The position numbers were made by a program, and so were the translations under genes. Below the pieces are notes generated by a model. It saw only the letters and a list, made by a program, of their open reading frames with translations. It did not search any database and had not been told where the DNA came from. A stretch of 64,000 nt of DNA from Escherichia typing phage 1, in the sequence record KP869100; one strand, written 5' to 3'. Each line of letters begins with the position of its first letter. Position 1 is the stretch's first letter. This document shows, one piece after another, positions 1,022-34,481 of the stretch.

Positions 1022-2560
1022 TTTTTATAAAAATTTTATCGGTTGTTCCAACCTCTGGGTCACCATCATATGTGAATAAAATATCTATCCTTCTTAACAA
1101 CCTTCTTAATCTTACTCTCTATATATAGTTATATAGTACTATATAGTGTCTTAGTAACTATCTAGTGGTCTTAATAGCCCCTCTGTATAACCCTTCTAAA
1201 TAGCCCTCTAAACACTCTTCTAACAAGCCTTCTTAACAACCTATACAATCACCTTAACCATCTCTCTATACGCTCTTAGAAGCCTCTATACACCCCTTAA
1301 TCTCTATGTCAGCTATGATACTCTCTATAGGTGTTCACTAGGCACTACTAAGCCTCTATATAGACTGTTTTAACAAACTTAACAGGAATATCTTTACAGA
1401 CCTTATCTCACAAGGTCTAACACGGTACTAACAAGGTATCTTATAAGCCTGTTTCTACCTGTATTTTTAAAAGACTGTATAAGTAATTATTCAGAATTTT
1501 AAAATTTTTATAAAATAAGACTGTCAAGTCATTTTTTAGGGTCTTTGAAGGAACTCAAAAATATCTGTAGAAGATGTATATCTGCTTGGTAGCCCTTAAC
1601 AGCTCCCTTACAAGTACTTTGCAAAATTTTAAAATATCCTTAACAACATCTTAACAACTCTCTCAAGCTCTTAACATCTCTTCAAAGGTCTTAACAGTTT
1701 CTTAACAGAACTAACAAGAACTTAACAGTTTTCTAACAAGCTTTGGTAGGGCTTTACAGAATCTTAACAGATAACTAACAAGAGCTAACAAGTTAATTTT
1801 AAAGAGTTATTTTGTTAAGATAATTAACAAGTTCCTAACAAGTGTTTAATCTTTTTAACAAGCTATTAACATGGTCACTATCTCTTTTCTTATCGTTCCC
1901 TTTCTCTCTTAGTGATTCTCTAAACATACCTTTTAAAAGCTCTCTATAGCTCCTTGTAAGCTCTTTTAAGCCTCTTCCTAGTATCTACCCCTCAACTGTA
2001 TGGATAGCTCTTTATAGGGCTTTACAGGAGCTTTTAAGGCTATGTCAAAGGTTCTTACAAGGCTTTTACGTGGTCTTAACAGAGATTTAACAAGGGGCTA
2101 ACAAGTTGCTAACAAGTGCCTTAAAAGCATAACTATGTAGGGATTGTTAAGAAATTGTTAAGGGGGCTAGCATTTACGTAACTTTTAAGCTACTTCAAAG
2201 TAACTTTATAGCCCCTATAACATACTTTTAAGACACTAACAAGCCCTTTTTAGTAGTTCACAAGATAGCTAACGAGATGATAAAGCTCACACCCTTATAA
2301 GATTCTTTTAAGGCTCTAGAAAGCTCTATAAAGGGCTTTTTAGAGTGGGTTAATATGATTGCTTAAGTTAGGTTGATAAGGCTGTTATAGGGCTTTATAG
2401 AGCGTTTAAATGGTTGCCCTTCCCTTTCGGGTTATGGGCTTATATTTAAGTTGATTTGATAAGGGGTTATAGAGTAAGCTATAGAGTTATTGCTTTTAAG
2501 GTACGGGATAGATTCTAGGAAGGAAAGGAAAGGGATTGTATAGAGTCTCTTTATAGACGT
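1022..2560. repeat. non-coding repeat-dense region (oriented yTAACAr and CTATAG-type short repeats)
   Basis: No credible ORF; more than 25 same-orientation copies of CTTAACA/CTAACAAG-type cores, 15 of them within 1640-1880, plus many CTCTATAG/TTATAGGG copies; bounded by terminators. Confidence 0.7.
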
Positions 2561-2613
2561 AAAAAAGCCCCTATGAGAAGGAGCTTTTCAGGTATCTGGG
2601 GCTATTTAGCCCC
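2561..2613 (-). terminator. terminator region ending the long minus-strand transcription block
   Basis: AAAAAAGCCCC..GGAGCTTTT and GGGGCTATTTAGCCCC hairpins flanked by A/T runs, just downstream of the stop at 2624. Confidence 0.45.
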
Positions 2614-2623
2614 GCTGCGTCGA

Positions 2624-2872
2624 TTAGTTGTAACCTTGTTTGCTGTAGTACAGAGAGACAATCAAGTCACCCCAATAATGGTAGTGAGATTCCTCGTTTA
2701 TGGCTTCTTTTACGGCATCTTTCCAGAAGTCATCAGTAGGGTTATAATCTGGTATCACCTGCTGAATCAGCATTTTGATAAGGTCAAAGGTGTTATCTGT
2801 TCCACCGATATCGAATTTTGCATCAAGTTGGTGGCAGCCATAAGCATTAACAGTTACGCGGATAGTTGACAT
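2624..2872 (-). CDS. hypothetical small protein
   Basis: 82-aa ORF; start directly downstream of a type-A cassette SD. Confidence 0.5.
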   Translation of the reverse strand: MSTIRVTVNAYGCHQLDAKFDIGGTDNTFDLIKMLIQQVIPDYNPTDDFWKDAVKEAINEESHYHYWGDLIVSLYYSKQGYN

Positions 2873-2966
2873 AATTTAGAATCTCCAGTTTAGGACTTTA
2901 TTTAGTGGGGAAGGTCATTCCCTCCCCGTTGTTTAGTAATTTACTGCATATTGGCGTAGGTTGCAA
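2873..2966 (-). promoter_or_regulatory. type-A cassette A1 (promoter TTGCAA-N17-TAAATT + G/C hairpin + SD)
   Basis: -35 at 2961-2966 and -10 at 2938-2943 (minus strand), then CAACGGGGAGGGAATGACCTTCCCC leader and GGAGAT SD before the ATG at 2872. Confidence 0.55.
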
Positions 2967-3204
2967 GCCTTTTTTCGTTGTATTTTGTCAGAATTTCACA
3001 AGATAGAACATCGTACATTGTAACCGCTTTGCTTTTGTCGAGGTCAAAAAAGCCAAATGCTTTACCATCTTTGAATCCGACAACTTCGTAAGATTCTTTA
3101 ATGATTTCACCATTGAACAAATCACTTTCGATACGGTGAAACAACGCTACGTCTTCTTTGTCAGTTGCAATCTGCAATAGTGTGGTTAATTCTACGTGTT
3201 CCAT
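2941..3204 (-). CDS. hypothetical small protein
   Basis: Track ORF 2941..3309 trimmed to the ATG at 3202-3204 because the upstream part is occupied by cassette A2. Confidence 0.45.
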   Translation of the reverse strand: MEHVELTTLLQIATDKEDVALFHRIESDLFNGEIIKESYEVVGFKDGKAFGFFDLDKSKAVTMYDVLSCEILTKYNEKRLATYANMQ

Positions 3205-3297
3205 TTTTGAATCTCCTAGTTTAAGGACTTTACTTAGTGGGAAGGTTAATCCCTCCCCGTTGATTGACAATTTACAGACTTTTGATTGTCTCGTCAA
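3205..3297 (-). promoter_or_regulatory. type-A cassette A2 (TTGACG-N17-TAAATT + hairpin + SD)
   Basis: -35 at 3292-3297, -10 at 3269-3274 (minus strand), conserved leader and TAGGAGATTC SD. Confidence 0.55.
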
Positions 3298-3802
3298 TAT
3301 CTTTTTCAATATCTTTTAAAGTTTTTTCTAAGTTCTTGATATTGAAGGATAAGCCTTCACCGAGAGTCTTAGAATAACCGCTAGGACGTAAATCATAAAG
3401 GCCAATTTGTTCTACATTGGAGAGGTTGACCATTTCACCGCTTACATCATAAGCTATTGATACGGTGTTTTCAGGGGCTTTATAGAACTTGTTAAGATTC
3501 TTGATAGAACGTTCATAAGCCATTTTATAACCATTTAAAAGGTCTTTAACGTGGTTGCGAACGTTTTTACACTCATCTAAGTAAATACCTAAGAATAGCG
3601 GTAACAGTTCTGCTACAGCTTGCATAAAGTGAGATACTACAACAGTAGAAACATTACGACGATGTATATAATAAGCCCCGTTTTCTGATTTAGTGATAGT
3701 TGCAAAGTGTACACCGTTGCAACGAAATTCGAAGGTATCTTTAACGGGTTTAGTCATAACGTTAGATGAGCGAATGTAGTTGATAGCTTGAAACTTGTTC
3801 AT
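3272..3802 (-). CDS. hypothetical protein
   Basis: 176-aa ORF preceded by cassette A3; no recognised domain. Confidence 0.55.
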   Translation of the reverse strand: MNKFQAINYIRSSNVMTKPVKDTFEFRCNGVHFATITKSENGAYYIHRRNVSTVVVSHFMQAVAELLPLFLGIYLDECKNVRNHVKDLLNGYKMAYERSIKNLNKFYKAPENTVSIAYDVSGEMVNLSNVEQIGLYDLRPSGYSKTLGEGLSFNIKNLEKTLKDIEKDIDETIKSL

Positions 3803-3895
3803 TTTGAATCTCCTAGTTTAAGGACTTTACTTAGTGGGGAAGGTCATTCCCTCCCCGTTGTTTAGTACTATACTTGTTTTGATTTGCCTTTGCAA
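3803..3895 (-). promoter_or_regulatory. type-A cassette A3 (TTGCAA-N17-TATAGT + hairpin + SD)
   Basis: -35 at 3890-3895, -10 at 3867-3872 (minus strand), conserved GGGGAAGGTCATTCCCTCCCC hairpin and SD. Confidence 0.55.
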
Positions 3896-4023
3896 GCAAT
3901 TTTTTAAGTTTATCTATAAAGAATCTATTAAGTGAATCCCTTTTAGATAACCCCCTCGAACAAAGTTACCAATGTCAATGGGTATTGTCAACACTTTTTT
4001 AAAAGTTTTTTGTAAGTTATTGA

Positions 4024-4365
4024 TTAACTTATGAAGATTTTTTCAGGCTTTACATAGCTGATACGCTGACTTTTTAGCAGGTCATCCCAGATTAAAGCGG
4101 CAATATGTGCATAACCGGATTCACGTAAAAGCTTCATTGTTTTACTTCTCGTTTCAAAACGGCTTGCGTAGTATTCACTGTTCAAGGTCGTTTTATTCCC
4201 TTCGTTATCTGTATGGATGATTTGCATCACTTGAAAGGGGCTTACACCCTCGCCTTTGTTCCACTGTTCAAAGTATTTTAGGCACTGCATAGGTGACATC
4301 TTATCACTTACTTGAGTTGACCAAGATGAGCCAGCTTTATCGGTAATTACGGTTACATAAGCCAT
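4024..4365 (-). CDS. hypothetical protein
   Basis: 113-aa ORF; preceded by type-B cassette B1. Confidence 0.55.
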   Translation of the reverse strand: MAYVTVITDKAGSSWSTQVSDKMSPMQCLKYFEQWNKGEGVSPFQVMQIIHTDNEGNKTTLNSEYYASRFETRSKTMKLLRESGYAHIAALIWDDLLKSQRISYVKPEKIFIS

Positions 4366-4450
4366 TTTAGAATCTCCAGTTTAGGATTGAGTGGTAAAGC
4401 TCTTTATCTGGGGCTTACTATACAGACTAATAAGCCCCATGTAAAGTACT
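4366..4450 (-). promoter_or_regulatory. type-B cassette B1 (AAAGTACTTT palindrome + GGGGCTTA/TAAGCCCC hairpin + conserved leader + SD)
   Basis: Perfect 8-bp inverted repeat GGGGCTTA..TAAGCCCC at 4410-4438; leader AGATAAAGAGCTTTACCACTCAATCCTAAACTGGAGATTC precedes the ATG. Confidence 0.55.
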
Positions 4451-4699
4451 TTAAGCGTCTTTATATTCTATCTCTGTGCACTCACCTTTTACTAGCTCAA
4501 AGGTCCAAATAATTCGTTTATACTCAATCACTACTACAGTAACAAGGTCAGTCCTCTTCTCATTGGTTTTAAAGTCTATTGTGTGGGTATACTCATAACT
4601 AGTCTTATCCTTAATTTCCCCGTAGCGTCTACACTCTTTATAGACTTCATCCATTAAGCCATTGCTAACCATGTTTTTTAGTTGAGTTTTAGTATACAT
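4451..4699 (-). CDS. hypothetical small protein
   Basis: 82-aa ORF; preceded by cassette A4. Confidence 0.5.
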   Translation of the reverse strand: MYTKTQLKNMVSNGLMDEVYKECRRYGEIKDKTSYEYTHTIDFKTNEKRTDLVTVVVIEYKRIIWTFELVKGECTEIEYKDA

Positions 4700-4795
4700 T
4701 TTTTGGAATCTCCTAGTTTAAGGACTTTACTTAGTGGGGAAGGTCATTCCCTCCCCGTTGATTGATAATTTACAGACTTTTATCAGGCTTGTCTA
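4700..4795 (-). promoter_or_regulatory. type-A cassette A4 (TAGACA-N17-TAAATT + hairpin + SD)
   Basis: -35 at 4790-4795, -10 at 4767-4772 (minus strand), conserved hairpin and SD. Confidence 0.55.
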
Positions 4796-5026
4796 GTCTT
4801 TTTCAATGATAATTTCATATTGACCATCGACACTGTCGAAATAGATTCCTTCGTCATCTTCTGTCTTAAAGTAACATTGTATATCATCACTGGCGGGGTA
4901 GTCTTGTCTTGCTATCTGGCAAACTTGAATAGCATTTTCTTTACTTCCTGTAAACTCTTCAAGCCCTTTAAAGTCACATGAATGGCCGTTACAAATGGAA
5001 AGGATGAGATAAATGGTTGTAAGCAT
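4793..5026 (-). CDS. small protein with hydrophobic N-terminus (possibly secreted)
   Basis: 77-aa ORF; N-terminus MLTTIYLILSICNG is signal-peptide-like. Confidence 0.45.
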   Translation of the reverse strand: MLTTIYLILSICNGHSCDFKGLEEFTGSKENAIQVCQIARQDYPASDDIQCYFKTEDDEGIYFDSVDGQYEIIIEKD

Positions 5027-5036
5027 GATTTAAGCC

Positions 5037-5058
5037 CTCTAAAAGCCCCTGTAAGGGG
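5037..5058 (-). terminator. putative intrinsic terminator
   Basis: CCCCT-GTA-AGGGG hairpin followed on the minus strand by CTTTT, immediately after the stop at 5093. Confidence 0.4.
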
Positions 5059-5092
5059 TTAATCAGTGTTTATAAGGTGAATGTATAGGTTT

Positions 5093-5635
5093 TTAGAAAA
5101 AGACCTTTAAATCACTCTCTACAATGTTTTCTGTCAGTGTATCCATGATGTCACAAAAAACCTGAATACTGTCGGATTGTTGGATACTTTTAGCAAGTAG
5201 CTCCAATGTTTCATCAAGATAATTTAAATTTGGGTTATCCAGTGAAGGGAGACAAAAAGGTGAATACATAGCGTTGAACTCTGTTGTATAGACCTTTTTA
5301 ATCCAATTTACATCAAAGTACTCTGTAAAGCTTGCTATATTTGACATGTTATCACAAGAATAATCATCATTTAGCTCATCCTCTGGAATGTCAAGTTCTA
5401 AGATAACAATATTTTGAGTTTTCATCTGAAAAGCTGCCGTGATAGTGGCATTTCCTAGAGCTTGCTGGATACCTTCCGATGCTATCTCTTCCTCATCATC
5501 ACCATAGAGTTTATTTTCTGGGTACACGTAAAAATTGCCGTCCATATCCGAACAATTCCATACACCTGATGGTTTATCACCGTTATTAATCAGGTTAATA
5601 AAGTTTTCTTGAGTAGTACCGTGAAAGCATTTCAT
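5093..5635 (-). CDS. highly acidic protein (DNA-mimic-like composition)
   Basis: 180-aa ORF, very rich in D/E with few K/R (runs such as GDDEEEIASEG, DIPEDELNDD); preceded by cassette B2. Confidence 0.55.
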   Translation of the reverse strand: MKCFHGTTQENFINLINNGDKPSGVWNCSDMDGNFYVYPENKLYGDDEEEIASEGIQQALGNATITAAFQMKTQNIVILELDIPEDELNDDYSCDNMSNIASFTEYFDVNWIKKVYTTEFNAMYSPFCLPSLDNPNLNYLDETLELLAKSIQQSDSIQVFCDIMDTLTENIVESDLKVFF

Positions 5636-5742
5636 TTTGAATCTCCTAGTTTAAGGATTTAGTGGTAAAGCTCTTTATCTGGGGCTTACTTTATCGAACT
5701 ATAAGCCCCTTGTAAAGTACTTTATCAGTTAATTTTTGACAA
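5636..5742 (-). promoter_or_regulatory. type-B cassette B2 (TTGTCA-N17-TACTTT + hairpin + SD)
   Basis: -35 at 5737-5742, -10 at 5714-5719 (minus strand); GGGGCTTA..TAAGCCCC hairpin; conserved leader and SD. Confidence 0.55.
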
Positions 5743-5926
5743 CTTTTAAAACTGCAAGATAACCTAAGCAATAAGAATCACCGAAGAGAGTTCTACCCAT
5801 GAAAGAATCATCTTTGATATCCTTTGCAGTGACTGTTTTTTCTACGCCGTGGGAAAGAACTACATCACCAACTTTAATGTCTTTGATGTGCGTGGTTTCA
5901 ATGGTTAAACCGTTGATAATAGCCAT
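5729..5926 (-). CDS. hypothetical small protein
   Basis: 65-aa ORF; preceded by cassette A5. Confidence 0.45.
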   Translation of the reverse strand: MAIINGLTIETTHIKDIKVGDVVLSHGVEKTVTAKDIKDDSFMGRTLFGDSYCLGYLAVLKVVKN

Positions 5927-6020
5927 TTTGAATCTCCTAGTTTAAGGACTTTACTTAGTGGGGAAGGTCATTCCCTCCCCGTTGATGTGTAATTTAATCT
6001 ATCTAAAAATCAGTGTCAAT
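5927..6020 (-). promoter_or_regulatory. type-A cassette A5 (TTGACA-N17-TAAATT + hairpin + SD)
   Basis: -35 at 6015-6020, -10 at 5992-5997 (minus strand); promoter part identical to cassette A6. Confidence 0.6.
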
Positions 6021-6027
6021 AAAATTT

Positions 6028-6432
6028 TTAGAGTTCTGCATAAATTGCGTCGCAGATGTCACGAAAGTCATGATTTGCCAAATTACGTTGTAACCAAGTG
6101 GCAAAGAAATCAGCGATTGCAAAATTAGCATCATACTCAACAGATAGCCACACTTTCACGGCAAATCTAAACATTTTCAAGTCTAACTCTTTATTCATTA
6201 CCTTAGATTTGCCTAACATGTCGACCATTTCATATTGTGCACCGTCTAGCGTGATACCTGCTGCAACGTCAGCCAATGAGTTTTTTACGTTTTCAACGTC
6301 TAAGATAACGCTTTGAATCTTTCCGATAATGTTGTGCAATGTTTCATCCGGTGCTGATGATGTAATAACATTGATTCGATTAACGGTTAAACGTGCTTTT
6401 AAGATTGACAACTCACGATTATTAATAGCCAT
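6028..6432 (-). CDS. hypothetical protein
   Basis: 134-aa ORF; preceded by cassette B3. Confidence 0.55.
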   Translation of the reverse strand: MAINNRELSILKARLTVNRINVITSSAPDETLHNIIGKIQSVILDVENVKNSLADVAAGITLDGAQYEMVDMLGKSKVMNKELDLKMFRFAVKVWLSVEYDANFAIADFFATWLQRNLANHDFRDICDAIYAEL

Positions 6433-6517
6433 TTTAGAATCTCCAATTTAGGATTGAGTGGTAAAGCTCTTTATCTGGGGCTTACTGTACAGACTAATAA
6501 GCCCCCTGTAAAGTACT
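6433..6517 (-). promoter_or_regulatory. type-B cassette B3
   Basis: GGGGCTTA..TAAGCCCC hairpin, AAAGTACTTT palindrome, conserved leader and SD. Confidence 0.5.
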
Positions 6518-6790
6518 TTATACTAAATGCAGTTTTTTACCTTTTACTATGATGTAACTTGATGTGCTATTGCTACATACATCCTGATAAATTCTGCGCA
6601 AACGTCCTTCATAGTATACTTTCCAGCTAGTTGGAATCTTTTTGCCGTATCCGGTAGCAGTTTTTTGGAGTCCTGCGACTTGCCAATCTAAGATATGTTG
6701 CTCAGCCTGTAAATCCTCAAAGTGCATCACACCGTCTACATAGTGACGTAGAGTGACATTTAAAGTGCGACCGTTGTTAGTAGTATACAT
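6518..6790 (-). CDS. hypothetical small protein
   Basis: 90-aa ORF; preceded by cassette A6. Confidence 0.5.
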   Translation of the reverse strand: MYTTNNGRTLNVTLRHYVDGVMHFEDLQAEQHILDWQVAGLQKTATGYGKKIPTSWKVYYEGRLRRIYQDVCSNSTSSYIIVKGKKLHLV

Positions 6791-6883
6791 TTTAGAATCT
6801 CCTAGTTTAAGGACTTTATTTAGTGGGGTGTTTATTGCCTCCCCGTTGATGTGTAATTTAATCTATCTAAAAATCAGTGTCAA
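6791..6883 (-). promoter_or_regulatory. type-A cassette A6 (TTGACA-N17-TAAATT + variant hairpin + SD)
   Basis: -35 at 6878-6883, -10 at 6855-6860 (minus strand); hairpin interior differs from other A copies but the GGGG/CCCC stem is kept. Confidence 0.55.
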
Positions 6884-7212
6884 CAGTTTTGTTTTCGTTT
6901 GCTCAACTCTTGAACAATTACAGTATGATAGTCTTTTAAGTCACTAATATTTAAAGCATTTATCAGAGAATTATAATCATCGACTAATTGAAAATCATCT
7001 TTGAAAATGTCGCTGATTTGATAAGTTCTCGCCCTGAATCTGAAGCTCATTTCTAACCGCTTTAATTGTTCATCGCTCAACCGCTCTAGAAAGCTCATTA
7101 CAAGGCTATTGCTAACCTGTTGTGTGATTGCCTTATTTGCTAGATTATAGGCTTTATATGCCTTATAGAGCGCGAAAATGGCAATGATTGCAGTGATACC
7201 AGTCATTAACAT
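6880..7212 (-). CDS. small membrane-anchored protein
   Basis: 110-aa ORF; N-terminal hydrophobic segment GITAIIAIFALY. Confidence 0.45.
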   Translation of the reverse strand: MLMTGITAIIAIFALYKAYKAYNLANKAITQQVSNSLVMSFLERLSDEQLKRLEMSFRFRARTYQISDIFKDDFQLVDDYNSLINALNISDLKDYHTVIVQELSKRKQNC

Positions 7213-7502
7213 GGTGCTTCCTCTTTACGTGATACTTTGCCATTTACAGTTATCTCATAAGAATCTAGTAAATCGCTTTTAGATTTGACAGGACTTTTAA
7301 GAGTATCATCATAGATATTAACTTGCAATACAGGTTTTTTATACTCCCTGCAACTATTCCATAAGCAAATCACTACACGACGACCTTTTATTTTGCCGTG
7401 TAACCATTCCATAACATCATGGCTATTTCTTGATGTTTCAATGAAATCAATTTTGTTGAGTAATTTGCTTAGATTTTCACGAACTTTATTTGATAATTTC
7501 AT
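7206..7502 (-). CDS. hypothetical small protein
   Basis: 98-aa ORF; preceded by cassette B4; 7-nt overlap with the downstream gene. Confidence 0.5.
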   Translation of the reverse strand: MKLSNKVRENLSKLLNKIDFIETSRNSHDVMEWLHGKIKGRRVVICLWNSCREYKKPVLQVNIYDDTLKSPVKSKSDLLDSYEITVNGKVSRKEEAPC

Positions 7503-7590
7503 TTTTGAATCTCCAGTTTAGGATTGAGTGGTAAAGCTCTTTATCTGGGGCTTAAGATACCAACTTTTAAGCCCCTTGTAAAGTACTTTA
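7503..7590 (-). promoter_or_regulatory. type-B cassette B4
   Basis: 9-bp inverted repeat GGGGCTTAA..TTAAGCCCC; palindrome and conserved leader/SD. Confidence 0.5.
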
Positions 7591-7881
7591 TCAGTTAATT
7601 TTCAGCTTTGCATAACCTCTCATTGTACGAATTGGAGATGTTAAGGCTACGCGTCTAATATATGCCTTTTTCGTGTATACATTTGTCTTTCCGATAGTGT
7701 TTACACATGTAAAAAGATTTATTGGTGAATTTTTTAACTTCAACTGTTTATCAGCCTTCACACCCCATCTTACAGCAGATTGTTTTCCGTTGTCAACCAC
7801 TTTCCCGCCTAACTTTTTCGCCATGATGCGAGCGTCATCACGAGTTTTTACAGGAATTACAACGTTTTTGATAGTAGCCAT
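7591..7881 (-). CDS. hypothetical small basic protein
   Basis: 96-aa ORF, Lys/Arg-rich; preceded by cassette B5. Confidence 0.5.
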   Translation of the reverse strand: MATIKNVVIPVKTRDDARIMAKKLGGKVVDNGKQSAVRWGVKADKQLKLKNSPINLFTCVNTIGKTNVYTKKAYIRRVALTSPIRTMRGYAKLKIN

Positions 7882-7969
7882 TTTTGAATCTCCAATTTAG
7901 GATTTAGTGGTAAAGCTCTTTATCTGGGGCTTACTTTATCGAACTATAAGCCCCTTGTAAAGTACTTTA
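7882..7969 (-). promoter_or_regulatory. type-B cassette B5
   Basis: Near-identical to B2 (same hairpin GGGGCTTACTTTATCGAACTATAAGCCCC). Confidence 0.5.
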
Positions 7970-8350
7970 TCAGTTAATTTTGAAGATTGTTACATAACCA
8001 TCACTACCGATTATTTGAGACACTCCAGCTTTTTCTACTTGATAGCCCATATTTTCAAGATGATAAACAGCATCATCGTAACCATATGCGCCACCCTGAT
8101 AACGTCTCTTATCGCATCTTATCAGGTTTTTACCACGTCCAGCAAGTGCATGTAAAATGGCTTTTTCACTTGAAAGAGTACCATCTAGCATTGTCGCCGT
8201 GTAATGGTTAATTTTATTCCCATTGATATCATACTTAAAATTAAACGAGTGAACAACAATAACGTTACCTTTAAAATTCTCATCAAGTGACTTCTCCAGT
8301 GCGTTGCGAAAGTTGTCTTTGTTGATGAATTTAGGTGCACGATATGCCAT
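7970..8350 (-). CDS. hypothetical protein
   Basis: 126-aa ORF; preceded by cassette B6; no recognised domain. Confidence 0.5.
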   Translation of the reverse strand: MAYRAPKFINKDNFRNALEKSLDENFKGNVIVVHSFNFKYDINGNKINHYTATMLDGTLSSEKAILHALAGRGKNLIRCDKRRYQGGAYGYDDAVYHLENMGYQVEKAGVSQIIGSDGYVTIFKIN

Positions 8351-8441
8351 TTTTGAATCTCCTAGTTTAAGGGTTGATTTGGTAAAGCTCTTTATCTGGG
8401 GCTTAAGATATCAGCTTTTAAGCCCCTTGTAAAGTACTTTA
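8351..8441 (-). promoter_or_regulatory. type-B cassette B6
   Basis: GGGGCTTAA..TTAAGCCCC hairpin; palindrome; conserved leader/SD. Confidence 0.5.
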
Positions 8442-8648
8442 TTAGGCATCGTAGTAATAAACTGCTGTCTGTCTTATGTACTTTCTTGTATTTCTTGTAA
8501 GGTAGCAATTAGAGTTTATAGCTGTTTCTACATAGTTGCAATAGTCAGCCTCTGATATTCTAGACCATGCGCCACATACTTGCATGTAAAAACGTTTTAC
8601 CTTTGTGTTAACGTTAGTTGTAACCATCAATTCACGACTATAAAGCAT
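8442..8648 (-). CDS. hypothetical small protein
   Basis: 68-aa ORF downstream of the promoter at 8698-8726. Confidence 0.4.
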   Translation of the reverse strand: MLYSRELMVTTNVNTKVKRFYMQVCGAWSRISEADYCNYVETAINSNCYLTRNTRKYIRQTAVYYYDA

Positions 8649-8697
8649 TTTCGATTCTCCAGTTTAGGAAGTGGGCTTGCTTGCCCGTCTGATGCAA

Positions 8698-8726
8698 ATA
8701 GTACGTAAACTTGTTTGGCGTGTCAA
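8698..8726 (-). promoter_or_regulatory. sigma70-like promoter TTGACA-N17-TACTAT
   Basis: -35 (rc TGTCAA) at 8721-8726, -10 (rc ATAGTA) at 8698-8703, 17-nt spacer; followed by a short hairpin and GGAGAA SD. Confidence 0.5.
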
Positions 8727-8894
8727 CGGTTTTTATTAAATATTTTTTGTAAGGTTGGGAAATGAACGGGCGCGCACGACTACCACAAAACAGAACACAA
8801 ATCAAGAATTATTTTTCAACCCGCTACAAATTTTTCTCTTGACTTTTGGGGAGAGGTGGAGTAAGAGGGGGAGAGGGGTTGGTCTGGCTCTCTA

Positions 8895-9090
8895 TAAAAA
8901 CCTACCTGCACGATTCTAAAATGATTTTTCTTGCCCGACCTGAGCGGGGTCTGCACGTTTTGAAAATGAAAAAGCTCTTTGGAGATTACCTGCACAGTTT
9001 GAAAATGAATTTTCTCTTTGGAGTTCAAAATTCTCTCTACAGATTTCTCTACAGAACTCTACCTGCACAATCCTGAAATGAAAAAGCCCT
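8895..9090. repeat. four direct repeats (CCTGCAC-N-TGAAAATGA) in a GC-richer non-coding island
   Basis: acctgcacgattctaaaatga, tctgcacgttttgaaaatga, acctgcacagtttgaaaatga, acctgcacaatcctgaaatga; surrounding G-rich tract ggggagaggtggagtaagagggggagagggg. Confidence 0.6.
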
Positions 9091-27926: not shown

Positions 27927-30132
27927 CTTGCAGTGCAGATTTACCTACACCAATGCGACTGTTAAGGTAGTACATGGTTTTCATACCTACCGAGTTGGCA
28001 TAAATCATGTACTTCAGAGCTTGAGCCAATGATACCTTCTTAGACTTTGCATAGTCAACATAGAAGTCTGAAGAGATAGCTTGACCAGTGAACTTTTGAA
28101 CAATTGCATAACAATCAATCATATCAAAGGTGTCAATATCCCAAGCAATTTCATAGACATACTTCAACTCTTCATAATCTGGAACAATAAACAGTACGTT
28201 ACCAGTTGCAGACTTTTTAGTTAAAATAAAGTCACGAATTGGGTACAAGCCATTTGTCGTATTAGTTGCTAGTGAAGAACTCTCATTAGGCATGTAAGCT
28301 TCTAATACAGAGTTTCGGATTCCACCATTCTCTTTGATACGTTGTGCTAAGTCATCCCAATCATATCGTAGTTTCGCATCATGCTTTTCATCAATCTTCT
28401 TGTTAGCTGTCTTTGGAGGAACCCACCCTTCAGGATACTTAGTGAACTTCATATACTCAGGTACACCACGTTCTTTAGCAAGTCTCAAAGAAGCTTCGTG
28501 TAAGTAGTAAGAGTGCATTTCAGCAAGCTCATGAAGCTTCGTCTTACCTGCTCTTGAAGAATAGTTCACGTAGTTCTTCGCAAGGTAATGAGCCACATTT
28601 GTAAGGCCAATCCCAACAGAACGACGCTTCTGAACATGGTTACGCATCGACGGATACGGATAATCCATAAGGTCAATAACGGAGTCAACCATTGCAAGAG
28701 CATAATAAGCAACGTCAGCGTATTCATCTTCTGAAATTCTCCCTGCAACCAAACTAGCTAGGAAGCAAAGAGCTACCTCACCATCCTCTTTCACAGCATC
28801 GTCTCTGTAAAGGTCTGTCTCTTTCTCAAAACCATACACTGGCAATACAATTTCCATACAAAGATTTGACATCTTCAATGGTTCTTTAAATGGTGTATGT
28901 GTGTTTGCATTGTTAGTGAAGAATGGATACACACGACCTGTAGCATAACGCTGTTGAATAAACAGCTTAGCAATTTCACGAGCCTTGACTCGTCTGTGTT
29001 TAACACCTGAATGTACTGCATGACCAACTGCCATAGCAAACTCATCAGCAGATGCTGTGTAGAACATGTCATAGAGTTTTGGTGCATCTTTGTAAGAGAA
29101 TAGCAACCAATCTGTATCATACTGAACACACTGCCAGAAATAATCGTTTGTACCGAATGAGTAGTCCATCTCATTAATACGTTTAGAAGGAACCGTTGTA
29201 GGGTGCTTCAAACGCAGTAAATCTTCAATCTGCGGGTCTAGAGCAGTGTAGAAGTTATTAGCTGAACCACCACGACTCTTCTGTTTGTTTGCCTCTACAG
29301 ATGAACGTACAAGCTTGTAATAAGGTAGCTTACCCATGTGCTCAATCGTATTTTGACGGATACCATCACCAATAGTGCGAGTCTCCATCAGCATACCAAT
29401 ACCAGCTTGCTTTGTAGTCATATCATAAGCAACCTTTGCAGCAATACCAAGTGATTCAGCAGTATCATTTGCCTTAATCAAACAGCATGACGCATAGCCT
29501 GATTTAGTTGCTCTTAAACCGTTTAAATAAGGCGTAGGAGCGTTAATCTTCAGGTCAGATAGGTAAGTGTACAGCTTGATAACATCTTGTAGTCTACGGT
29601 GCTTTGGTTGCTTCTCAAAGGCTTTCATAGCCATGCCCATAAACATAAATTGTGGTGACTCAAAAAGTCTTCCAGTTTTAATATCACGGATACCATACTT
29701 GTCTCTGAACTGTTTCAATACTGCATAGCCGTAAGAGATATCTTTTGAGTGTACGATGTAACCTTGCAGATATTCAAGCTCTTCCTGTGAATAATCCATC
29801 TTCTCCCAAAGTCCTGCTCTCTCCATATTTTTAACGAAGGTAATCAGCGTAGGAACCTTAGTAAAGCCTCCAAAGGCTTCTTTGTAGATAATACCCAGAA
29901 GTAGCCGTCCAGCCATATCTGAGTACTCTTGAGTTTGTTTATCAACACAAACATCAATCATGGCTTGGTGCATCTCTTTTGTGGTGCAACCTTCATAGAC
30001 ACGTTTCATAGCTTCCATAGTGACTTCTGACCAGATAATTCCACGCTTGTCTGCCCATGATGCCCACTTATTCAGTCTTTCTGGGTCAAAGCTTACTACT
30101 GTGCCGTTTGATTTTTTAATTGTCTTAATCAT
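27898..30132 (-). CDS. nrdA: ribonucleotide reductase large subunit
   Basis: 744 aa; N-terminal ATP-cone-like segment; C-terminal CEGCGV tail; adjacent nrdB. Confidence 0.9.
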   Translation of the reverse strand: MIKTIKKSNGTVVSFDPERLNKWASWADKRGIIWSEVTMEAMKRVYEGCTTKEMHQAMIDVCVDKQTQEYSDMAGRLLLGIIYKEAFGGFTKVPTLITFVKNMERAGLWEKMDYSQEELEYLQGYIVHSKDISYGYAVLKQFRDKYGIRDIKTGRLFESPQFMFMGMAMKAFEKQPKHRRLQDVIKLYTYLSDLKINAPTPYLNGLRATKSGYASCCLIKANDTAESLGIAAKVAYDMTTKQAGIGMLMETRTIGDGIRQNTIEHMGKLPYYKLVRSSVEANKQKSRGGSANNFYTALDPQIEDLLRLKHPTTVPSKRINEMDYSFGTNDYFWQCVQYDTDWLLFSYKDAPKLYDMFYTASADEFAMAVGHAVHSGVKHRRVKAREIAKLFIQQRYATGRVYPFFTNNANTHTPFKEPLKMSNLCMEIVLPVYGFEKETDLYRDDAVKEDGEVALCFLASLVAGRISEDEYADVAYYALAMVDSVIDLMDYPYPSMRNHVQKRRSVGIGLTNVAHYLAKNYVNYSSRAGKTKLHELAEMHSYYLHEASLRLAKERGVPEYMKFTKYPEGWVPPKTANKKIDEKHDAKLRYDWDDLAQRIKENGGIRNSVLEAYMPNESSSLATNTTNGLYPIRDFILTKKSATGNVLFIVPDYEELKYVYEIAWDIDTFDMIDCYAIVQKFTGQAISSDFYVDYAKSKKVSLAQALKYMIYANSVGMKTMYYLNSRIGVGKSALQDAYCEGCGV

Positions 30133-30146
30133 TTTTAAATCCTACA

Positions 30147-30172
30147 GATGAAAAGAGCCTCCGAAGAGGCTC
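30147..30172 (-). terminator. intrinsic terminator (GAGCCTC-CGAA-GAGGCTC)
   Basis: Perfect 7-bp stem at 30155-30172 followed on the minus strand by TTTTCATCT. Confidence 0.55.
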
Positions 30173-30178
30173 CCTAGT

Positions 30179-30514
30179 TTAAATCTTGAAAATTTGCTCA
30201 TTCTGCCACATATCGTAAAACTTATCACTTACCTTTGTGACTGAAGAGGTGTGCATACAATTCAGGAACCATGATGGTGTACTATCATCCATAATTGTTT
30301 CAAGTTTTTGTGTGACATTCACATCCATGTCTGCAACAACGTAATTGCCTCGCATTTTGCAAACAATTCTTCCAAACAAGATTGCGCTTCTGCCTCTTCG
30401 GTCGTCACAGTACATAACTGTGTCACCGTGCTTAACATCTTGTCCGATACTATCAACACCTAATTTAGCACCTGAGATAATGTCATCATAAGATAGCTTT
30501 TTTGCTTTAGACAC
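30179..30514 (-). CDS. hypothetical protein
   Basis: 111-aa ORF. Confidence 0.45.
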   Translation of the reverse strand: MSKAKKLSYDDIISGAKLGVDSIGQDVKHGDTVMYCDDRRGRSAILFGRIVCKMRGNYVVADMDVNVTQKLETIMDDSTPSWFLNCMHTSSVTKVSDKFYDMWQNEQIFKI

Positions 30515-30839
30515 GGTATTTCTCCAAGTTTCTTTTTAGATATAACCAACCATAGTCAGTTCTTTCTACACCCATGAATAGTGGAGCCATTACAACTTTA
30601 CCAAAAGTATTCCTGTGTTGGCAGATTTCAAAAGAATATTCTTTCTCAATATCAATCCCGTATTTGTACAGGACTGCTTTTAAAACTTGTTCATTGTCCA
30701 GAAGTGTATCTGGAGTCTCACCATATTTTTCTAGTAACGGGTCATTCATAAACACCGTCATAGAAATATTGTAGTTTGAGAAGTGGCTCTTCTGAGCCAC
30801 ACCTTCTTTATTAATGTTCTGTGAATCCATTATAACCAA
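30507..30839 (-). CDS. hypothetical protein
   Basis: 110-aa ORF. Confidence 0.45.
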   Translation of the reverse strand: MVIMDSQNINKEGVAQKSHFSNYNISMTVFMNDPLLEKYGETPDTLLDNEQVLKAVLYKYGIDIEKEYSFEICQHRNTFGKVVMAPLFMGVERTDYGWLYLKRNLEKYRV

Positions 30840-31566
30840 CCCCTTTTAACCAGCACTTCAGGTTATTAGCATCATAATTCAGTTTCGGGTATGAGGTTAC
30901 ATGGAACTGCTCACCATCATAGTAGACAATATCTGCAATCCATAGTCCGTTCTCTTTACAGAAATCTTTATCTGCTTTAGAGGTAATTGGATTAACTTCT
31001 ACAAAACCATCTACACCCAAATCCTTTAAGCTACCTACAATACCTTTGCAGATAACGCATGTCTCAGATACTACCACAAAAAGTTCTTGGCTTTCAAGTT
31101 CTACAATGTATTCACCAAGCTGTACTTTTGGGAGATTCGATTGCTTCATAATCTTCCCATCGGCTACACGAACAATTGCGTACCACTCTTTACCATCAAC
31201 TACTGACATTCTGACAATACAATCTTGACCAGTACGCTTCTCAATATCTGCAAGACGTTTTAAAGCTTCTTCATAATCGTCTGTGTATTTCAGGTCATTA
31301 TTATGGCAAACAGCTTTCATAGCACCGTTATGGTCATGTTGTGACAGGTAAATCAAACCGTCAAGAACATATTGCAAATCTGCCTGAGCATCCAGTGTCT
31401 CAATGGGGTCTTTCTCTTCAATCGCTTTTACAAGCTCTTTTGCTTCTTCAAGCATACACAGAGATTGAGATTTCAAAGACTCCCAATACTCATTACTGTA
31501 TGGTTGTTTTTGAGTTTTTCCGCAACGAAGATTCCAGTTTTTTACTGATTCTCTTGAGTTAAACAT
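30811..31566 (-). CDS. hypothetical protein
   Basis: 251-aa ORF; weak MazG-like helical N-terminus, not confirmed. Confidence 0.4.
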   Translation of the reverse strand: MFNSRESVKNWNLRCGKTQKQPYSNEYWESLKSQSLCMLEEAKELVKAIEEKDPIETLDAQADLQYVLDGLIYLSQHDHNGAMKAVCHNNDLKYTDDYEEALKRLADIEKRTGQDCIVRMSVVDGKEWYAIVRVADGKIMKQSNLPKVQLGEYIVELESQELFVVVSETCVICKGIVGSLKDLGVDGFVEVNPITSKADKDFCKENGLWIADIVYYDGEQFHVTSYPKLNYDANNLKCWLKGVGYNGFTEH

Positions 31567-31805
31567 TTGGACTCCTTAAAATATCTGTTAACCTTTAGCT
31601 CTCGTGTTTCAATATATTCCAGATGTTCACGTAGCTCTTGGCGTTTAAGCATTAGGTGCTGCATTTGAGATTCAACAGCTTCAACTTCTTTAATTATCGA
31701 CTCTCTAGCATTTGCAAGAATGCGCTCAAGTTCTTCAATCTTACTGTCAACTTTTGCTACATGACTCACAGCTTTGCTTTTATTAAACATTTTATTCTCT
31801 CTCAA
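31542..31805 (-). CDS. small coiled-coil protein
   Basis: 87 aa; heptad-like charged repeats. Confidence 0.4.
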   Translation of the reverse strand: MRENKMFNKSKAVSHVAKVDSKIEELERILANARESIIKEVEAVESQMQHLMLKRQELREHLEYIETRELKVNRYFKESKCLTQENQ

Positions 31806-31811
31806 TAGTTA

Positions 31812-32309
31812 TCAAGCACAGTTTGCTTTCATTACCTTATGGATTCTTTTTTCAGCATCTTCATAAGTTTCTTTAGTAATAAACTTAATTGCTGCAATAT
31901 TGGCATTGTAGAAGAGTCTGAGCTTAGAGTCAATCCTTTTTGTCATTACATCGAATTTATGTTGAAGATTTGCTTCACCATAGACTAGGCCACCTTTTGT
32001 GTAGTAGGTCTGAATAATGTAAAAGTCAAAAAATTCTTTTCCAAAGCTCTCAATATCTTTTTTAATATACTCAGAAGAAGTTTCATAAGTCATCCAATCA
32101 CTCTCCTTAGTGACTACCTTCTTCCGAGTCTTGCCAGCAACTTTTCTTTTAGTCACACTATTAAGCTGTTTCTTTCCGATATAATATTGTCCGGTTTTCT
32201 TACAGTGTACTAAATAGACAAAACCAAAATGTTTAGTGGGGTCAACTTCCCCACATAAAGACACCCAATGACCATAGGTGGGGCAATTGCCAAATCCTTT
32301 AATCTTCAT
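31812..32309 (-). CDS. GIY-YIG nuclease
   Basis: 165 aa; GFVYLVHCKKTGQYYIGKK matches the GIY-YIG signature. Confidence 0.55.
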   Translation of the reverse strand: MKIKGFGNCPTYGHWVSLCGEVDPTKHFGFVYLVHCKKTGQYYIGKKQLNSVTKRKVAGKTRKKVVTKESDWMTYETSSEYIKKDIESFGKEFFDFYIIQTYYTKGGLVYGEANLQHKFDVMTKRIDSKLRLFYNANIAAIKFITKETYEDAEKRIHKVMKANCA

Positions 32310-33339
32310 TCATACACGGCTCCCAATTATATTTCTTAAAAGAGAAATTATCTTTTGGATTTCTTTCTTGATAAGCTATCCAGAAATGCTGTTCCATTAG
32401 CTCTAACGGTGTCTTTGTAACTGTCTGTCCATCCCATGATACATAGGTGTAAGAGTCTTTTTTAGCATAGAGTTCATAGATAGCATCAAGACACTCTTTG
32501 TAGGTCTCTTTACCATCTAAAGCATTCATCACAGCCACTTTACCAGCACCTTTAAGTCCGAAGTAGTTGTCTGCATTATCTCCAGCAACAGCCTGATAGC
32601 ACAAGAATTTAAAACCTACACCAACTGTTTTTGCAGCTTTTGGTTTTGATTTGATAGGACAATCCCAGATATCACCAACATTATTATCAGCAATAAAGAT
32701 TAGTGGTGATTTTTCATAAGTCATATCAATACAATAAGTTCCTTCAGCTTGTCGAAGGTCTTTGTCAATACTCATAAGAGCAGCCTTCTTACCCATCTTT
32801 TCAGCTTTAGCAATTACGATTGAATCGGCTTCGAAGCCCCCCTTTAAGAGCTTGAACTCTGGTCTGGATAAAAGGTATTCACGACAAGCGACTAAGTGTG
32901 TTGGTGTGACAGCATCTTTACGATTACCTTGATATTGGTGCTCAAGACCTTTAATGTCTTTATGTTTATGCACACCCTTCTCTGTTAAATAACCTACCCA
33001 AGTTCTTTCTTTACCAACAATCTTAAGCCATTCCTGAAGCACCTGTTGAGTAGCCATGATAGCTTCTTTTTCACTCTTAGCTTCTTTCCAAGTTTGTCTT
33101 TCCCATTCATCTTCCTCAAATGTCAGGCCAAGCTCTTCCACAAGGATTCTCTGGTCTGCTAACCATCTTGCAGCATCTTTCGCATTATCAAATGGTTCAG
33201 ACTCTTCTGCTGTGAGTTTATTAACGTATTTATACTTTGCTTTCTCAACTACACAAGCACCTTTATAGGCAATACTGTCAGAGTCAATAAAGACATGTGT
33301 AACTGAATCGGGAAGCTTTGTTAATGTGTACTTCTCCAT
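32299..33339 (-). CDS. 5'-3' exonuclease / flap endonuclease (RNase H-like)
   Basis: 346 aa; N-terminal VFIDSDSIAYKGA and later SIDKDLRQ resemble FEN-family acidic motifs. Confidence 0.65.
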   Translation of the reverse strand: MEKYTLTKLPDSVTHVFIDSDSIAYKGACVVEKAKYKYVNKLTAEESEPFDNAKDAARWLADQRILVEELGLTFEEDEWERQTWKEAKSEKEAIMATQQVLQEWLKIVGKERTWVGYLTEKGVHKHKDIKGLEHQYQGNRKDAVTPTHLVACREYLLSRPEFKLLKGGFEADSIVIAKAEKMGKKAALMSIDKDLRQAEGTYCIDMTYEKSPLIFIADNNVGDIWDCPIKSKPKAAKTVGVGFKFLCYQAVAGDNADNYFGLKGAGKVAVMNALDGKETYKECLDAIYELYAKKDSYTYVSWDGQTVTKTPLELMEQHFWIAYQERNPKDNFSFKKYNWEPCMNED

Positions 33340-33351
33340 TATGGCTCTCCA

Positions 33352-33381
33352 TATGAAAAAGCCCCATACTAAGTACAGGGC
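33352..33381 (-). terminator. putative intrinsic terminator
   Basis: GCCC..GGGC hairpin followed on the minus strand by TTTTTCAT. Confidence 0.4.
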
Positions 33382-33401
33382 TTTAAAGTAACTTTTAGAG
33401 A

Positions 33402-34259
33402 TTAGTCTTCTGTATCGAAGTCTTCATCTTCTTCGTCATCTGGGTCTGGCAAATCTTCGTCATCGCCATCATCAGAATCATTCGAAGATTTATGGTCTGT
33501 TGCGTCTTCTTCAGTGATTTCACCGTTATCTTCGACACCATCAAGACCAAGCATAGCCAGTTCGTCTTCATCCAGTTCAGGTTCACCGTTAGCACCGTTA
33601 CCACCAGTGTAAGGTACAAGAGTATCAATGATAAACTGTTCCTGAATAGGTTTTGTCAGAACATTGTTCTCAAAAGTGTAGAAGTGAGTAGAAAGAATCA
33701 CGCTACCAAAAGAACCGTTACCAACTGCAATATCTGGATGAATTACATCATAGTTCTTATCATCTTCATGTTTGTCAGATGCTTGAGCTTTGATTTTCTT
33801 CATCGGCTGCTTAACAGCTACACGCTTACCATTTACTTCTTCAATCAGCATTACAGGGAATGACTGTTTAGCTGTCCATACAGCACCATCTTTATAAGCT
33901 GCTGCACGACTTACTTTCAAGATGTAGTAAGTGTCTGCTTCAAATGGTGGTTTGCAACCAAACTTCTCTTCGAAGTCATCTGCATCAACTGCTTCAGTAG
34001 TAACTTTATCCCAACCTTCTGGGTTTTTCTTAGACTTAGTAAACTCTTTAAACAGCTTGTTACCATCTTCTGCCAGAATTGAAACGCTGTAGTTACAGTC
34101 TTTGCCTGGGAATTTCTTATCAATAGACTTACCTTTTCCCGGACGTGGTGAAGTATTCAGGTAATAAAACCATACATCTTTCAGCAGGTAACGCAGAGTT
34201 TGACGTTCAGTACCGTTGTACTTCTCTACCGGAGCTTTCATTTTAACAACTTTAGACAT
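33402..34259 (-). CDS. putative single-stranded DNA-binding protein (acidic C-terminal tail)
   Basis: 285 aa; extremely acidic tail DDEDLPDPDDEEDEDFDTED as in phage SSBs; sits in the replication module. Confidence 0.5.
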   Translation of the reverse strand: MSKVVKMKAPVEKYNGTERQTLRYLLKDVWFYYLNTSPRPGKGKSIDKKFPGKDCNYSVSILAEDGNKLFKEFTKSKKNPEGWDKVTTEAVDADDFEEKFGCKPPFEADTYYILKVSRAAAYKDGAVWTAKQSFPVMLIEEVNGKRVAVKQPMKKIKAQASDKHEDDKNYDVIHPDIAVGNGSFGSVILSTHFYTFENNVLTKPIQEQFIIDTLVPYTGGNGANGEPELDEDELAMLGLDGVEDNGEITEEDATDHKSSNDSDDGDDEDLPDPDDEEDEDFDTED

Positions 34260-34295
34260 TATTTAAACCTCTATCTCAATTTATGAAGAGTACCA

Positions 34296-34324
34296 ATTCT
34301 AGTTTGTTGATACTCTATTGTCAA
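34296..34324 (-). promoter_or_regulatory. sigma70-like promoter TTGACA-N17-TAGAAT
   Basis: -35 (rc) at 34319-34324, -10 (rc) at 34296-34301, 17-nt spacer; upstream of the SSB candidate. Confidence 0.5.
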
Positions 34325-34331
34325 ACACTAA

Positions 34332-34481
34332 TTACTGGAAGTTGTGCTTATCTTTAGAAGCTGCTTTACGTGCAGTTTTTCCAGTTCTTACACGTTTTTC
34401 TTCATAGTATTTTGCTGGTTTTCCAGCAGTGGCTTTTAAGGAATCCCCAAAAACTTTTTCAAATGCTTTAGAGTGTTTCAT
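34332..34481 (-). CDS. unlisted 49-aa basic peptide
   Basis: Hand-translated MKHSKAFEKVFGDSLKATAGKPAKYYEEKRVRTGKTARKAASKDKHNFQ; GGAGAA SD; ATGA overlap with the upstream ORF. Confidence 0.3.
   Translation of the reverse strand: MKHSKAFEKVFGDSLKATAGKPAKYYEEKRVRTGKTARKAASKDKHNFQ

Follow-up and report, generated by a model that had tools for sequence, protein, structure and literature searches.

In the T4-type phages RB49, phi1, PST and nt-1, ORFans are preceded by promoter-early stem-loop (PeSL) cassettes, which combine a sigma-70-like promoter, an A/T-rich upstream tract, a GGGG...CCCC stem-loop at one of five positions and, at the 3′ end, a Shine-Dalgarno (SD) sequence and an ATG; these cassettes are clustered in hyperplastic regions, and the insertions and deletions (indels) of related phages end in them (Arbiol et al., 2010, PMC2839356; Comeau et al., 2014, PMC4122927). 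The authors of that work had no evidence yet for such plasticity in other viruses and left its occurrence elsewhere open (PMC2839356). Here, a stretch of 64,000 nucleotides (nt) from Escherichia typing phage 1 (sequence record KP869100; below, the window, numbered from its first letter) was analyzed, in which 13 cassettes of comparable design precede small open reading frames (ORFs) on the minus strand at 2870–8726. The stem-loop lies just past the -10 hexamer in the cassettes termed type A and between the -35 and -10 hexamers in those termed type B, where it spans both spacer and -10, so that two of the five PeSL positions are occupied. The repeats are probably standardized expression cassettes for early genes, analogous to PeSLs, that double as recombination linkers. 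A preliminary description, made from the sequence alone, had read six of them by the PeSL logic of T4-type phages; that architecture was found at every copy, with all of the sequence features given by Arbiol et al. (2010), and the part of the claim that did not hold is the lineage, as the phage is not T4-type.

The phage is a Felixounavirus (Ounavirinae; Felix O1-like): over positions 2500–9000 the window shares 99.9% identity with Escherichia coli O157 typing phage 15 (KP869113) and 99.4% with phage wV8, and a control stretch (30000–36500) is 100% identical to KP869113. For comparison, 62 type-A and 65 type-B copies (127 cassettes) were collected from 12 Ounavirinae genomes of three genera (Felixounavirus, Mooglevirus and Suspvirus), and gene order was compared among nine Felixounavirus genomes. 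A blastn search with the cassette matched 240 records, which by organism name were all Felix O1-like enterobacterial phages (Escherichia, Salmonella, Shigella, Citrobacter) apart from one oddly named record. Erwinia phages gave 0 matches to the cassette query at blastn sensitivity, yet a replication-gene control region matched 13 Erwinia records. Rfam, searched over the whole window at gathering thresholds, gave 0 matches.

Architecture and conservation of the cassettes

All six near-identical type-A copies described earlier, each before a small ORF, were recovered on the minus strand at 2870–6883 by reading the strand and with a repeat finder. A type-A cassette measures about 96 nt from -35 to ATG and consists, in order, of the -35 hexamer, a 17-nt spacer, the -10 hexamer, 10 nt ending in CAAC, a G/C hairpin, the A-rich leader ACTAAGTAAAGTCCTTAAACTA, GGAG and, after a further 7–10 nt, the ATG. 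The spacer is exactly 17 nt in 6/6 copies and the hexamers are those previously listed, with TTGACA (two copies), TTGCAA (two), TAGACA (one) and TTGACG (one) at -35 and TAAATT (five) and TATAGT (one) at -10. The hairpin GGGGAGGGAATGACCTTCCCC is identical in four of the six copies; that at 3258–3239 (GGGGAGGGATTAACCTTCCC) has one C fewer, and that at 6844–6825 has, as the preliminary description had noticed for the copy at 6791–6883, a different interior (GGGGAGGCAATAAACACCCC) in which only GGGG/CCCC is kept. This variant folds weakly (-11.1 kcal/mol, z score -1.4), and the other type-A leaders reach -17 to -18.8 kcal/mol (z about -2.6). A 40-nt pattern of the type-A consensus gave 4 ungapped matches, with 0.00 expected from 100 shuffles, and a covariance model of the cassette returned exactly the six type-A sites in the 64-kb window (67–93 bits, E ≤ 2e-14, all on the minus strand). 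The downstream ORFs, of 65–176 amino acids (aa), each start at the ATG of the cassette. Because the stop codon of the upstream ORF falls within the -35 or -10 hexamer in 4/6 copies, only the hairpin and leader are strictly intergenic.

The array further contains one diverged A-like copy and six type-B cassettes (4363–8441, minus strand), which are interleaved with type A. In type B the motif TTTACA, N17, TAnnnT is enclosed in a hairpin of about 60 nt (GGGGCTTA...TAAGCCCC), which is followed by the invariant AGATAAAGAGCTTTAC and an SD leader like that of type A; the type-B sites are flanked by TAAAGTACTTTA and TAAAGAGCTTTA. GGAG stands 7–10 nt ahead of the ATG in 13/13 cassettes. Elsewhere in the window, no cassette of either type was found.

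Across the 12 genomes, 62/62 type-A copies have TTGnnn or TAGACA, 17 nt, TAnnnT and 10 nt to the hairpin, over spacers that fall into at least seven unrelated sequences, and 65/65 type-B copies have TTTACA, N17, TAnnnT, with the T and A of the -10 conserved though this hexamer sits in an otherwise variable loop. Since hexamers and geometry are conserved over unrelated spacers, they constitute the phylogenetic footprint of a promoter. A promoter scan of the minus strand detected 5/6 type-A and 6/6 type-B promoters in the window, and the 22 nt upstream of the -35 hexamers were 78% A+T (52% A), compared with 63% A+T (34% A) in the surrounding 12 kb. The identity of these elements as promoters thus has strong sequence-level support, as distinct from proof of activity. 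Literature searches found no Felixounavirus transcriptome.

Among the type-A copies, 27 distinct hairpins were present, all paired directly after CAAC. Folded alone they reach -10 to -15 kcal/mol, with stems of 6–8 bp in 22/27 forms and of at most 8 bp; stem variants include GGGGAGGG/CCUUCCCC, GGGAGGU/ACCUCCC, GGGGAGG/CUUCCCC (with GAAA or GAGA loops), GGGGC/GCCCC and GGGA/UCCC. In a model-fitted alignment 94.5% of the cells pair and 9/12 pairs have changed on both sides, and the covariation score was 0.234, compared with 0.118 after shuffling (0/500 reached 0.234) and ≤0.108 when the partner was slid. The sense strand of type A folds better than the antisense strand (z -2.6 vs -0.7). Type B, folded as read-through RNA, gives a three-helix hairpin of about 60 nt that reaches 20 bp (z -3.5 to -4.3). 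A register-corrected count found 97.5% of its cells paired, among them swaps of G-C to U-A and of U-A to A-U, and a tool count on a plain MAFFT alignment found 95.7%, compared with 32–56% when slid. Cells that are not Watson-Crick pairs on the gene-sense strand of type B comprise 61 G·U and 2 A·C; given this excess, pairing holds for the gene-sense strand but not for its complement, as expected of RNA and not of a DNA cruciform. Together, the G·U asymmetry and the compensatory changes show apparent selection of the cassette hairpins as RNA.

The leader, CCT(T)AAACT(A)GGAG A(T/A)TC, is extremely conserved over the 127 cassettes and three genera, while the promoters and ORFs diverge. In all cassettes an upstream UCC(U) pairs with part of GGAG, giving a helix of 3–4 bp (for example at 5934–5948). 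Over the 12 genomes this SD helix has a long form (CCTTAAACTAGGAG/TCCTTAAACTAGGA) in 50 copies and a short form (CCTAAACTGGAG/TCCTAAACTGGA) in 58, with 0 mixed, and the forms switch at the same position between genomes; the coupling was not counted as covariation, because sites 8 nt apart move together in any gene-conversion tract.

The region of the array was full length in 8/255 related records, compared with 241/271 for a replication-gene control region of the same size. As had been anticipated, whole ORFs are exchanged between cassettes in related genomes, which differ by indels of whole genes whose ends lie in cassettes. Gene order is collinear and single ORF families vary (F19, F16, F23, F06/F22, F31 and F30), with every end in a cassette; F13 to F16 are absent together from Felix O1, again with ends in cassettes; and the same family is found with type A in some phages and with type B in others (F07, F17). 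Compared with wV8, identity is 99.6% from 8383 downwards and 91.6% above 8646, and wV8 lacks the segment between (8384–8645), with a 68-aa ORF of family F06 and the 5′ part of a type-B cassette; the two alignments overlap by a shared leader of 35 nt, in which the recombination joint lies. In each of four genomes the promoter before F11 is identical to that before F13, these promoters differ from genome to genome and VpaE1 has a mixture, and cassette cores are 88.1% alike across positions in one genome, compared with 89.0% at the same position across genomes. The wV8 junction and the homogenization of cores indicate what appears to be continuing exchange between cassettes. As about 60 nt are common to 13 cassettes within 5.9 kb, the cassettes are patches of homology. 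Homology to typing phage 12 also stops at about 8369, within the same type-B cassette as the wV8 breakpoint.

Proposed mechanism and alternative explanations

E. coli RNA polymerase usually initiates about 7 nt past the -10 hexamer. In the mechanism proposed here, host sigma-70 RNA polymerase would bind the A-rich upstream tract, the -35 (TTGnnn or TAGACA) and, across the 17-nt spacer, the -10 (TAnnnT), and by E. coli promoter geometry would start type-A transcripts about 7 nt after the -10, 2–4 nt before the invariant CAAC-GGGG junction. All type-A transcripts from their own promoters would then begin with the G/C hairpin of 6–8 bp, the invariant 10 nt between -10 and hairpin predicting a 5′ overhang of 2–4 nt, where a stabilizer is expected to lie within about 4 nt of the end. 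The hairpin would act in RNA, most likely by shielding the 5′ end from 5′-end-dependent decay, and in transcripts reading through from upstream it may serve as a secondary 3′ barrier or attenuator. The unstructured A-rich leader, the weak SD helix of 3–4 bp, GGAG and an ATG 7–10 nt further on would provide for uniform translation initiation. Type B would do the same job with the promoter inside the hairpin of about 60 nt and a predicted start about 7 nt after TAnnnT (AGAUAAAG...). Because its own promoter and start site lie inside the hairpin, this hairpin is possible only in read-through RNA, and its covariation shows that such RNAs are presumably of importance; the 3′ ends of messages from upstream may be set or protected by this hairpin, whose 20 bp would also suit an RNase III site. 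Type A was rejected as an RNase III site, since its at most 8 bp fall short of the roughly 20 bp of largely continuous helix. Recombination between cassettes adds, deletes or swaps single ORFs, each of which retains a promoter and ribosome-binding site, and this part of the mechanism is borne out by genome comparison.

That the cassettes drive early genes receives partial support from a reverse transcription PCR (RT-PCR) table for Felix O1 that includes seven such ORFs, four of which (ORFs 16, 20, 21 and 22) have their peak 5 min after infection. All seven were taken as cassette-driven by mapping of ORF families, and end-point RT-PCR is blind to the promoter of origin.

It is unlikely that the main task of the hairpins is termination or insulation, as was proposed for the stem-loops of PeSLs, with each hairpin halting transcripts that arrive from upstream and leaving each ORF to its own promoter. 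The intergenic location and the GGGG...CCCC stem are as in PeSLs, one of whose stem-loops lowered the expression of lacZ to an extent similar to that of rrnB T1 (Arbiol et al., 2010, PMC2839356), and the type-B hairpin, which lies upstream of its own predicted start and covaries in the RNA sense, fits a function at 3′ ends. The TransTerm-based annotation of wV8 calls some of the hairpins terminators, but on the strand opposite the genes. A T run, however, follows 0 of the cassette hairpins (type A continues with ACTAAGTAAAG and type B with AGATAAAGAG), the four sites returned by a terminator scan all lie outside the cassettes, and ordinary T-run terminators are used elsewhere in the array (about 5035–5062, after F14, and 2561–2584, at its end). 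Moreover, the type-A hairpin lies inside its own transcript, 10 nt after the -10, in 62/62 copies; it therefore cannot terminate strongly, since efficient termination at this point would shut off the gene behind it. It is highly improbable that the repeats act as DNA, whether as signals to a recombinase, in the form of cruciforms or hairpins, or as selfish insertions like miniature inverted-repeat transposable elements, with no role in expression. They do coincide with recombination junctions, and Arbiol et al. speculated that the GGGG...CCCC motif is the target of a DNA-binding recombination protein (PMC2839356); the complement nevertheless pairs worse than the gene-sense strand, which is unexpected for a cruciform, all copies have a single orientation and end exactly at SD and ATG, the promoter hexamers are kept over unrelated spacers, and the repeat finder detected 0 terminal inverted repeats and 0 target-site duplications.

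Another possibility, with a low probability, is that the hairpin and invariant leader form a site through which an RNA-binding regulator or a nuclease, encoded by the phage or hijacked from the host, shuts the early set off together, candidates being a nuclease of RegB type that cuts GGAG together with ribosomal protein S1, a translational repressor like RegA and an N/boxB-like antiterminator. The extreme conservation of the leader beside diverging promoters and ORFs fits such a site, but is equally explained by the needs of ribosome binding and by gene conversion between copies. GGAG with its A-rich tract resembles the strong RegB site GGAGRAYARAA (PMC3014915), to which GGAGATTCAAA conforms at 5/7 positions after GGAG, but a Pfam search confined to ten neighboring ORFs on the upstream side of the array gave 0 RegB matches, and no candidate protein was identified. 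GAAA or GAGA tetraloops occur in some of the type-A hairpins of Mooglevirus and Suspvirus, but loops vary overall (AATGA, AATA, GATAA, CGATAA, GAAA, AAGATAAA). As these loops differ freely, where boxB would require a conserved GNRA-like pentaloop, a lambda-type nut site bound by N was ruled out; CsrA binding, which involves one GGA in a hairpin loop and another in the SD, was ruled out by the many hairpin variants without a loop GGA. Twin palindromic operators (TAAAG-NN-CTTTA) around the core promoter of type B were considered, since both flanks are palindromic, and are disfavored because in variants such as TAAATTGCTTTA...TAAAGAGATTTA the palindromes break internally while flank-to-flank complementarity stays (G-C to U-A). 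There is a small chance that hairpin and leader are a shared operator silencing all 13 early genes, by way of a RegB/S1-like nuclease or RNA-binding repressor encoded elsewhere, and that mini-circles are excised as well; if true, this would be an integron-like gene-cassette system that evolved independently of that of T4-like phages.

Several points weigh against the reading of the repeats as standardized early expression cassettes. The promoter and start site follow from consensus, and there the fit is uneven: the type-A copy at 2966 scores 8 of 12, under the threshold of the promoter scan, TAAATT agrees with TATAAT at just 4/6 positions, and the 32 promoter-like sites in the region are a modest excess over the 21.4 ± 4.0 in shuffles. 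The role of the type-A hairpin as 5′ stabilizer, although most likely, is drawn from analogy. Its covariation counts come from a structure-fitted (covariance-model) alignment, which leans towards structure, and MAFFT with RNAalifold on 30 type-A leaders missed the stem, being out of register with 2 pairs only; pairing was counted instead by register and on the covariance-model alignment. The hairpin at 6844–6825 is nearly destroyed, yet it is conserved in wV8. In the Felix O1 table, ORFs 17, 19 and 23 peak at 25 min and not at 5 min. Finally, nearly all intergenic DNA of the array is cassette, so indel ends are expected there anyway and are weak evidence for exchange; only the wV8 breakpoint and the homogenization within genomes go beyond this null expectation.

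Individual cassettes, their genes and neighboring features

All coordinates below refer to the minus strand, and the cassettes are listed in the direction of transcription. The first cassette of the array is the diverged A-like copy at 8646–8726. The type-B cassette at 8348–8441 has TTTACA at 8433–8428, N17 and TATCTT at 8410–8405 inside the hairpin GGGGCTTAA...TTAAGCCCC, then the leader AGATAAAGAGCTTTA, GGAG at 8362–8359 and, at 8350–8348, the ATG of a 126-aa ORF; the wV8 breakpoint lies in it at 8383. Two more type-B cassettes follow, one at 7879–7969 (-10 TAAAGT, 7938–7933) before a 96-aa ORF (7591–7881) and one at 7500–7590 (-10 TATCTT, 7559–7554) before a 98-aa ORF (7206–7502) and an overlapping 110-aa ORF (6880–7212).

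The type-A copy with the weak variant hairpin (6844–6825) spans 6788–6883, with TTGACA at 6883–6878, containing the TGA stop of the upstream ORF, TAAATT at 6860–6855, GGAG at 6802–6799 and ATG at 6790–6788, and precedes a 90-aa ORF (6518–6790). The type-B cassette at 6430–6520 (-10 TACAGT, 6489–6484) precedes a 134-aa ORF (6028–6432); as read-through RNA it forms the three-helix extended hairpin at -26.6 kcal/mol (z -3.5). Type A at 5924–6019 has TTGACA at 6019–6014, TAAATT at 5996–5991, the hairpin GGGGAGGGAATGACCTTCCCC at 5980–5960, GGAG at 5937–5934 and ATG at 5926–5924, which opens a 65-aa ORF (5729–5926). Type B at 5633–5724 (-10 TAAAGT, 5693–5688; extended hairpin -25.1 kcal/mol, z -4.3) precedes a 180-aa ORF (5093–5635). 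A canonical-looking terminator with a T run (CCCCTTACAGGGGCTTTT, about 5035–5062) lies after F14, between the 180-aa and a 77-aa ORF.

Type A at 4697–4795 has TAGACA at 4795–4790, containing the upstream TAG stop, TAAATT at 4772–4767, its hairpin at 4756–4736, GGAG at 4713–4710 and, at 4699–4697, the ATG of an 82-aa ORF (4451–4699), and the last type-B cassette, at 4363–4453 (-10 TATAGT, 4422–4417), precedes a 113-aa ORF (4024–4365). The type-A copy at 3800–3895 (TTGCAA, 3895–3890; TATAGT, 3872–3867; hairpin, 3856–3836; GGAG, 3813–3810; ATG, 3802–3800) drives a 176-aa ORF (3272–3802); a 221-nt gap upstream of it contains an additional TTGACA-containing segment, GTGTTGACAATACCCATTGACATTGGTAACTT, with internal repeats at 3896–4023. 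At 3202–3297 the order is TTGACG (3297–3292), TAAATT (3274–3269, with the upstream TAA stop), hairpin GGGGAGGGATTAACCTTCCC (3258–3239), GGAG (3216–3213) and ATG (3204–3202), followed by an 87-aa ORF (2941–3204), and at 2870–2966 it is TTGCAA (2966–2961), TAAATT (2943–2938, again with the upstream TAA stop), hairpin (2927–2907), GGAG (2886–2883) and ATG (2872–2870), followed by an 82-aa ORF (2624–2872).

At the end of the array (2561–2613), reading by eye gave a B-like hairpin remnant at 2613–2593 (GGGGCTAAATAGCCCCAGATA; GGGGC-TAAATA-GCCCC-AGATA) and a terminator-like hairpin, GCTCC...GGGGC at 2584–2567, with a run of six T at 2566–2561 that the terminator scan missed; the homologous site in Felix O1 is given as terminator t23 (PMC3185647). 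Beyond it, about 1.6 kb without a credible ORF lie between convergent gene blocks (about 1000–2560). This gap is full of short periodic repeats of 10–24 nt (CTTAACAAG, CTTCTAAA, TATATAGTG), its equivalent is also unannotated in wV8, Felix O1, Mordin and SUSP1, and possible roles are in replication origin function, packaging or protein binding.

The preliminary description had named the small ORFs as prime candidates for anti-defence or host-takeover genes. For the cassette-driven ORFs, Pfam, PHROGs and PADLOC gave 0 function assignments, and the two largest had no sequence match in the PDB. The 180-aa ORF (5093–5635) has a weak signal of the ADP-ribosyltransferase fold; its structure model is of moderate confidence (predicted local distance difference test 67.5), with insignificant Foldseek matches. 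Its homologues were found only on apparently Felix O1-like contigs and have a nearly invariant CFHGTT at the N terminus and invariant FYVYP and ILEL. A role for this ORF as a host-modifying enzyme is a lead, not a finding.

Comparison with described systems

The repeats have been recorded before. The GenBank record of wV8 annotates them as repeat_region DR_1 to DR_9, without function, and they go unmentioned in the paper on wV8. In the Felix O1 paper, direct repeats of 57 bp (type B) and 39 bp (type-A promoter) are given without mention of a role, and they are not among its candidate promoters. Both records thereby gain a functional reading. As Felix O1-like phages are used in typing, biocontrol and therapy, the cassettes would be ready-made sites of insertion and expression, and they mark the roughly 15 genes likeliest to differ between otherwise near-identical isolates.

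Phage T7 has RNase III processing hairpins between its early genes, at sites without a promoter. The extended hairpin of type B is likewise intercistronic, its three helices, which have internal loops, add up to about 20 bp, and it could by analogy define the 3′ ends of upstream messages as a processing hairpin of T7 kind; the type-A stem of 6–8 bp is too short, and the cassettes, unlike the T7 sites, carry a promoter. Stabilizing stem-loops of the ompA type in E. coli mRNAs place a stable hairpin within a few nt of the 5′ end, which is the predicted position of the type-A hairpin, depending on the predicted start site. The host-takeover module of Bacillus phage SPO1 is reportedly a dense set of small early genes, each or nearly each with a strong host-type promoter and a strong ribosome-binding site of its own; the array is similar in its clustering of small genes with their own promoters and ribosome-binding sites at the start of the early program, but the SPO1 units are not known to be near-identical repeats or to take part in cassette shuffling. 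Morons of lambdoid phages, as summarized in a later paper, are flanked by unrelated sequences, and illegitimate recombination is their presumed mode of arrival (Hendrix et al., 2000, via PMC2839356). Going by that summary, they share with the present units the form of a single accessory ORF with its own promoter inserted between neighboring genes, whereas here every unit has the same flank in the same orientation, and the flank itself would be the site of crossing over.

PeSLs remain the closest counterpart, and no paper linking them to Felix O1-like phages was found in literature searches. The present cassettes differ from PeSLs in belonging to an Ounavirinae phage (about 88 kb) and not to Straboviridae; in having no detectable sequence similarity to T4-type PeSLs, the blastn matches to the cassette being confined to Ounavirinae; in their restriction to two rigidly standardized types with one common leader; and in the type-A hairpin, which lies inside its own transcript and so is not the strong terminator proposed for PeSLs. 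They are known from sequence alone, and in them G·U asymmetry and covariation show apparent selection at the RNA level, which is not established for PeSLs and changes how PeSLs should be tested. On this comparison the cassettes of Felix O1-like phages are an analogue, not a relative, of T4-type PeSLs. Cassettes of PeSL type, so far described only in T4-like phages, would thereby extend to an unrelated subfamily of myoviruses, and independent evolution of the same design would argue for a general way to keep fast-changing early accessory genes expressed.

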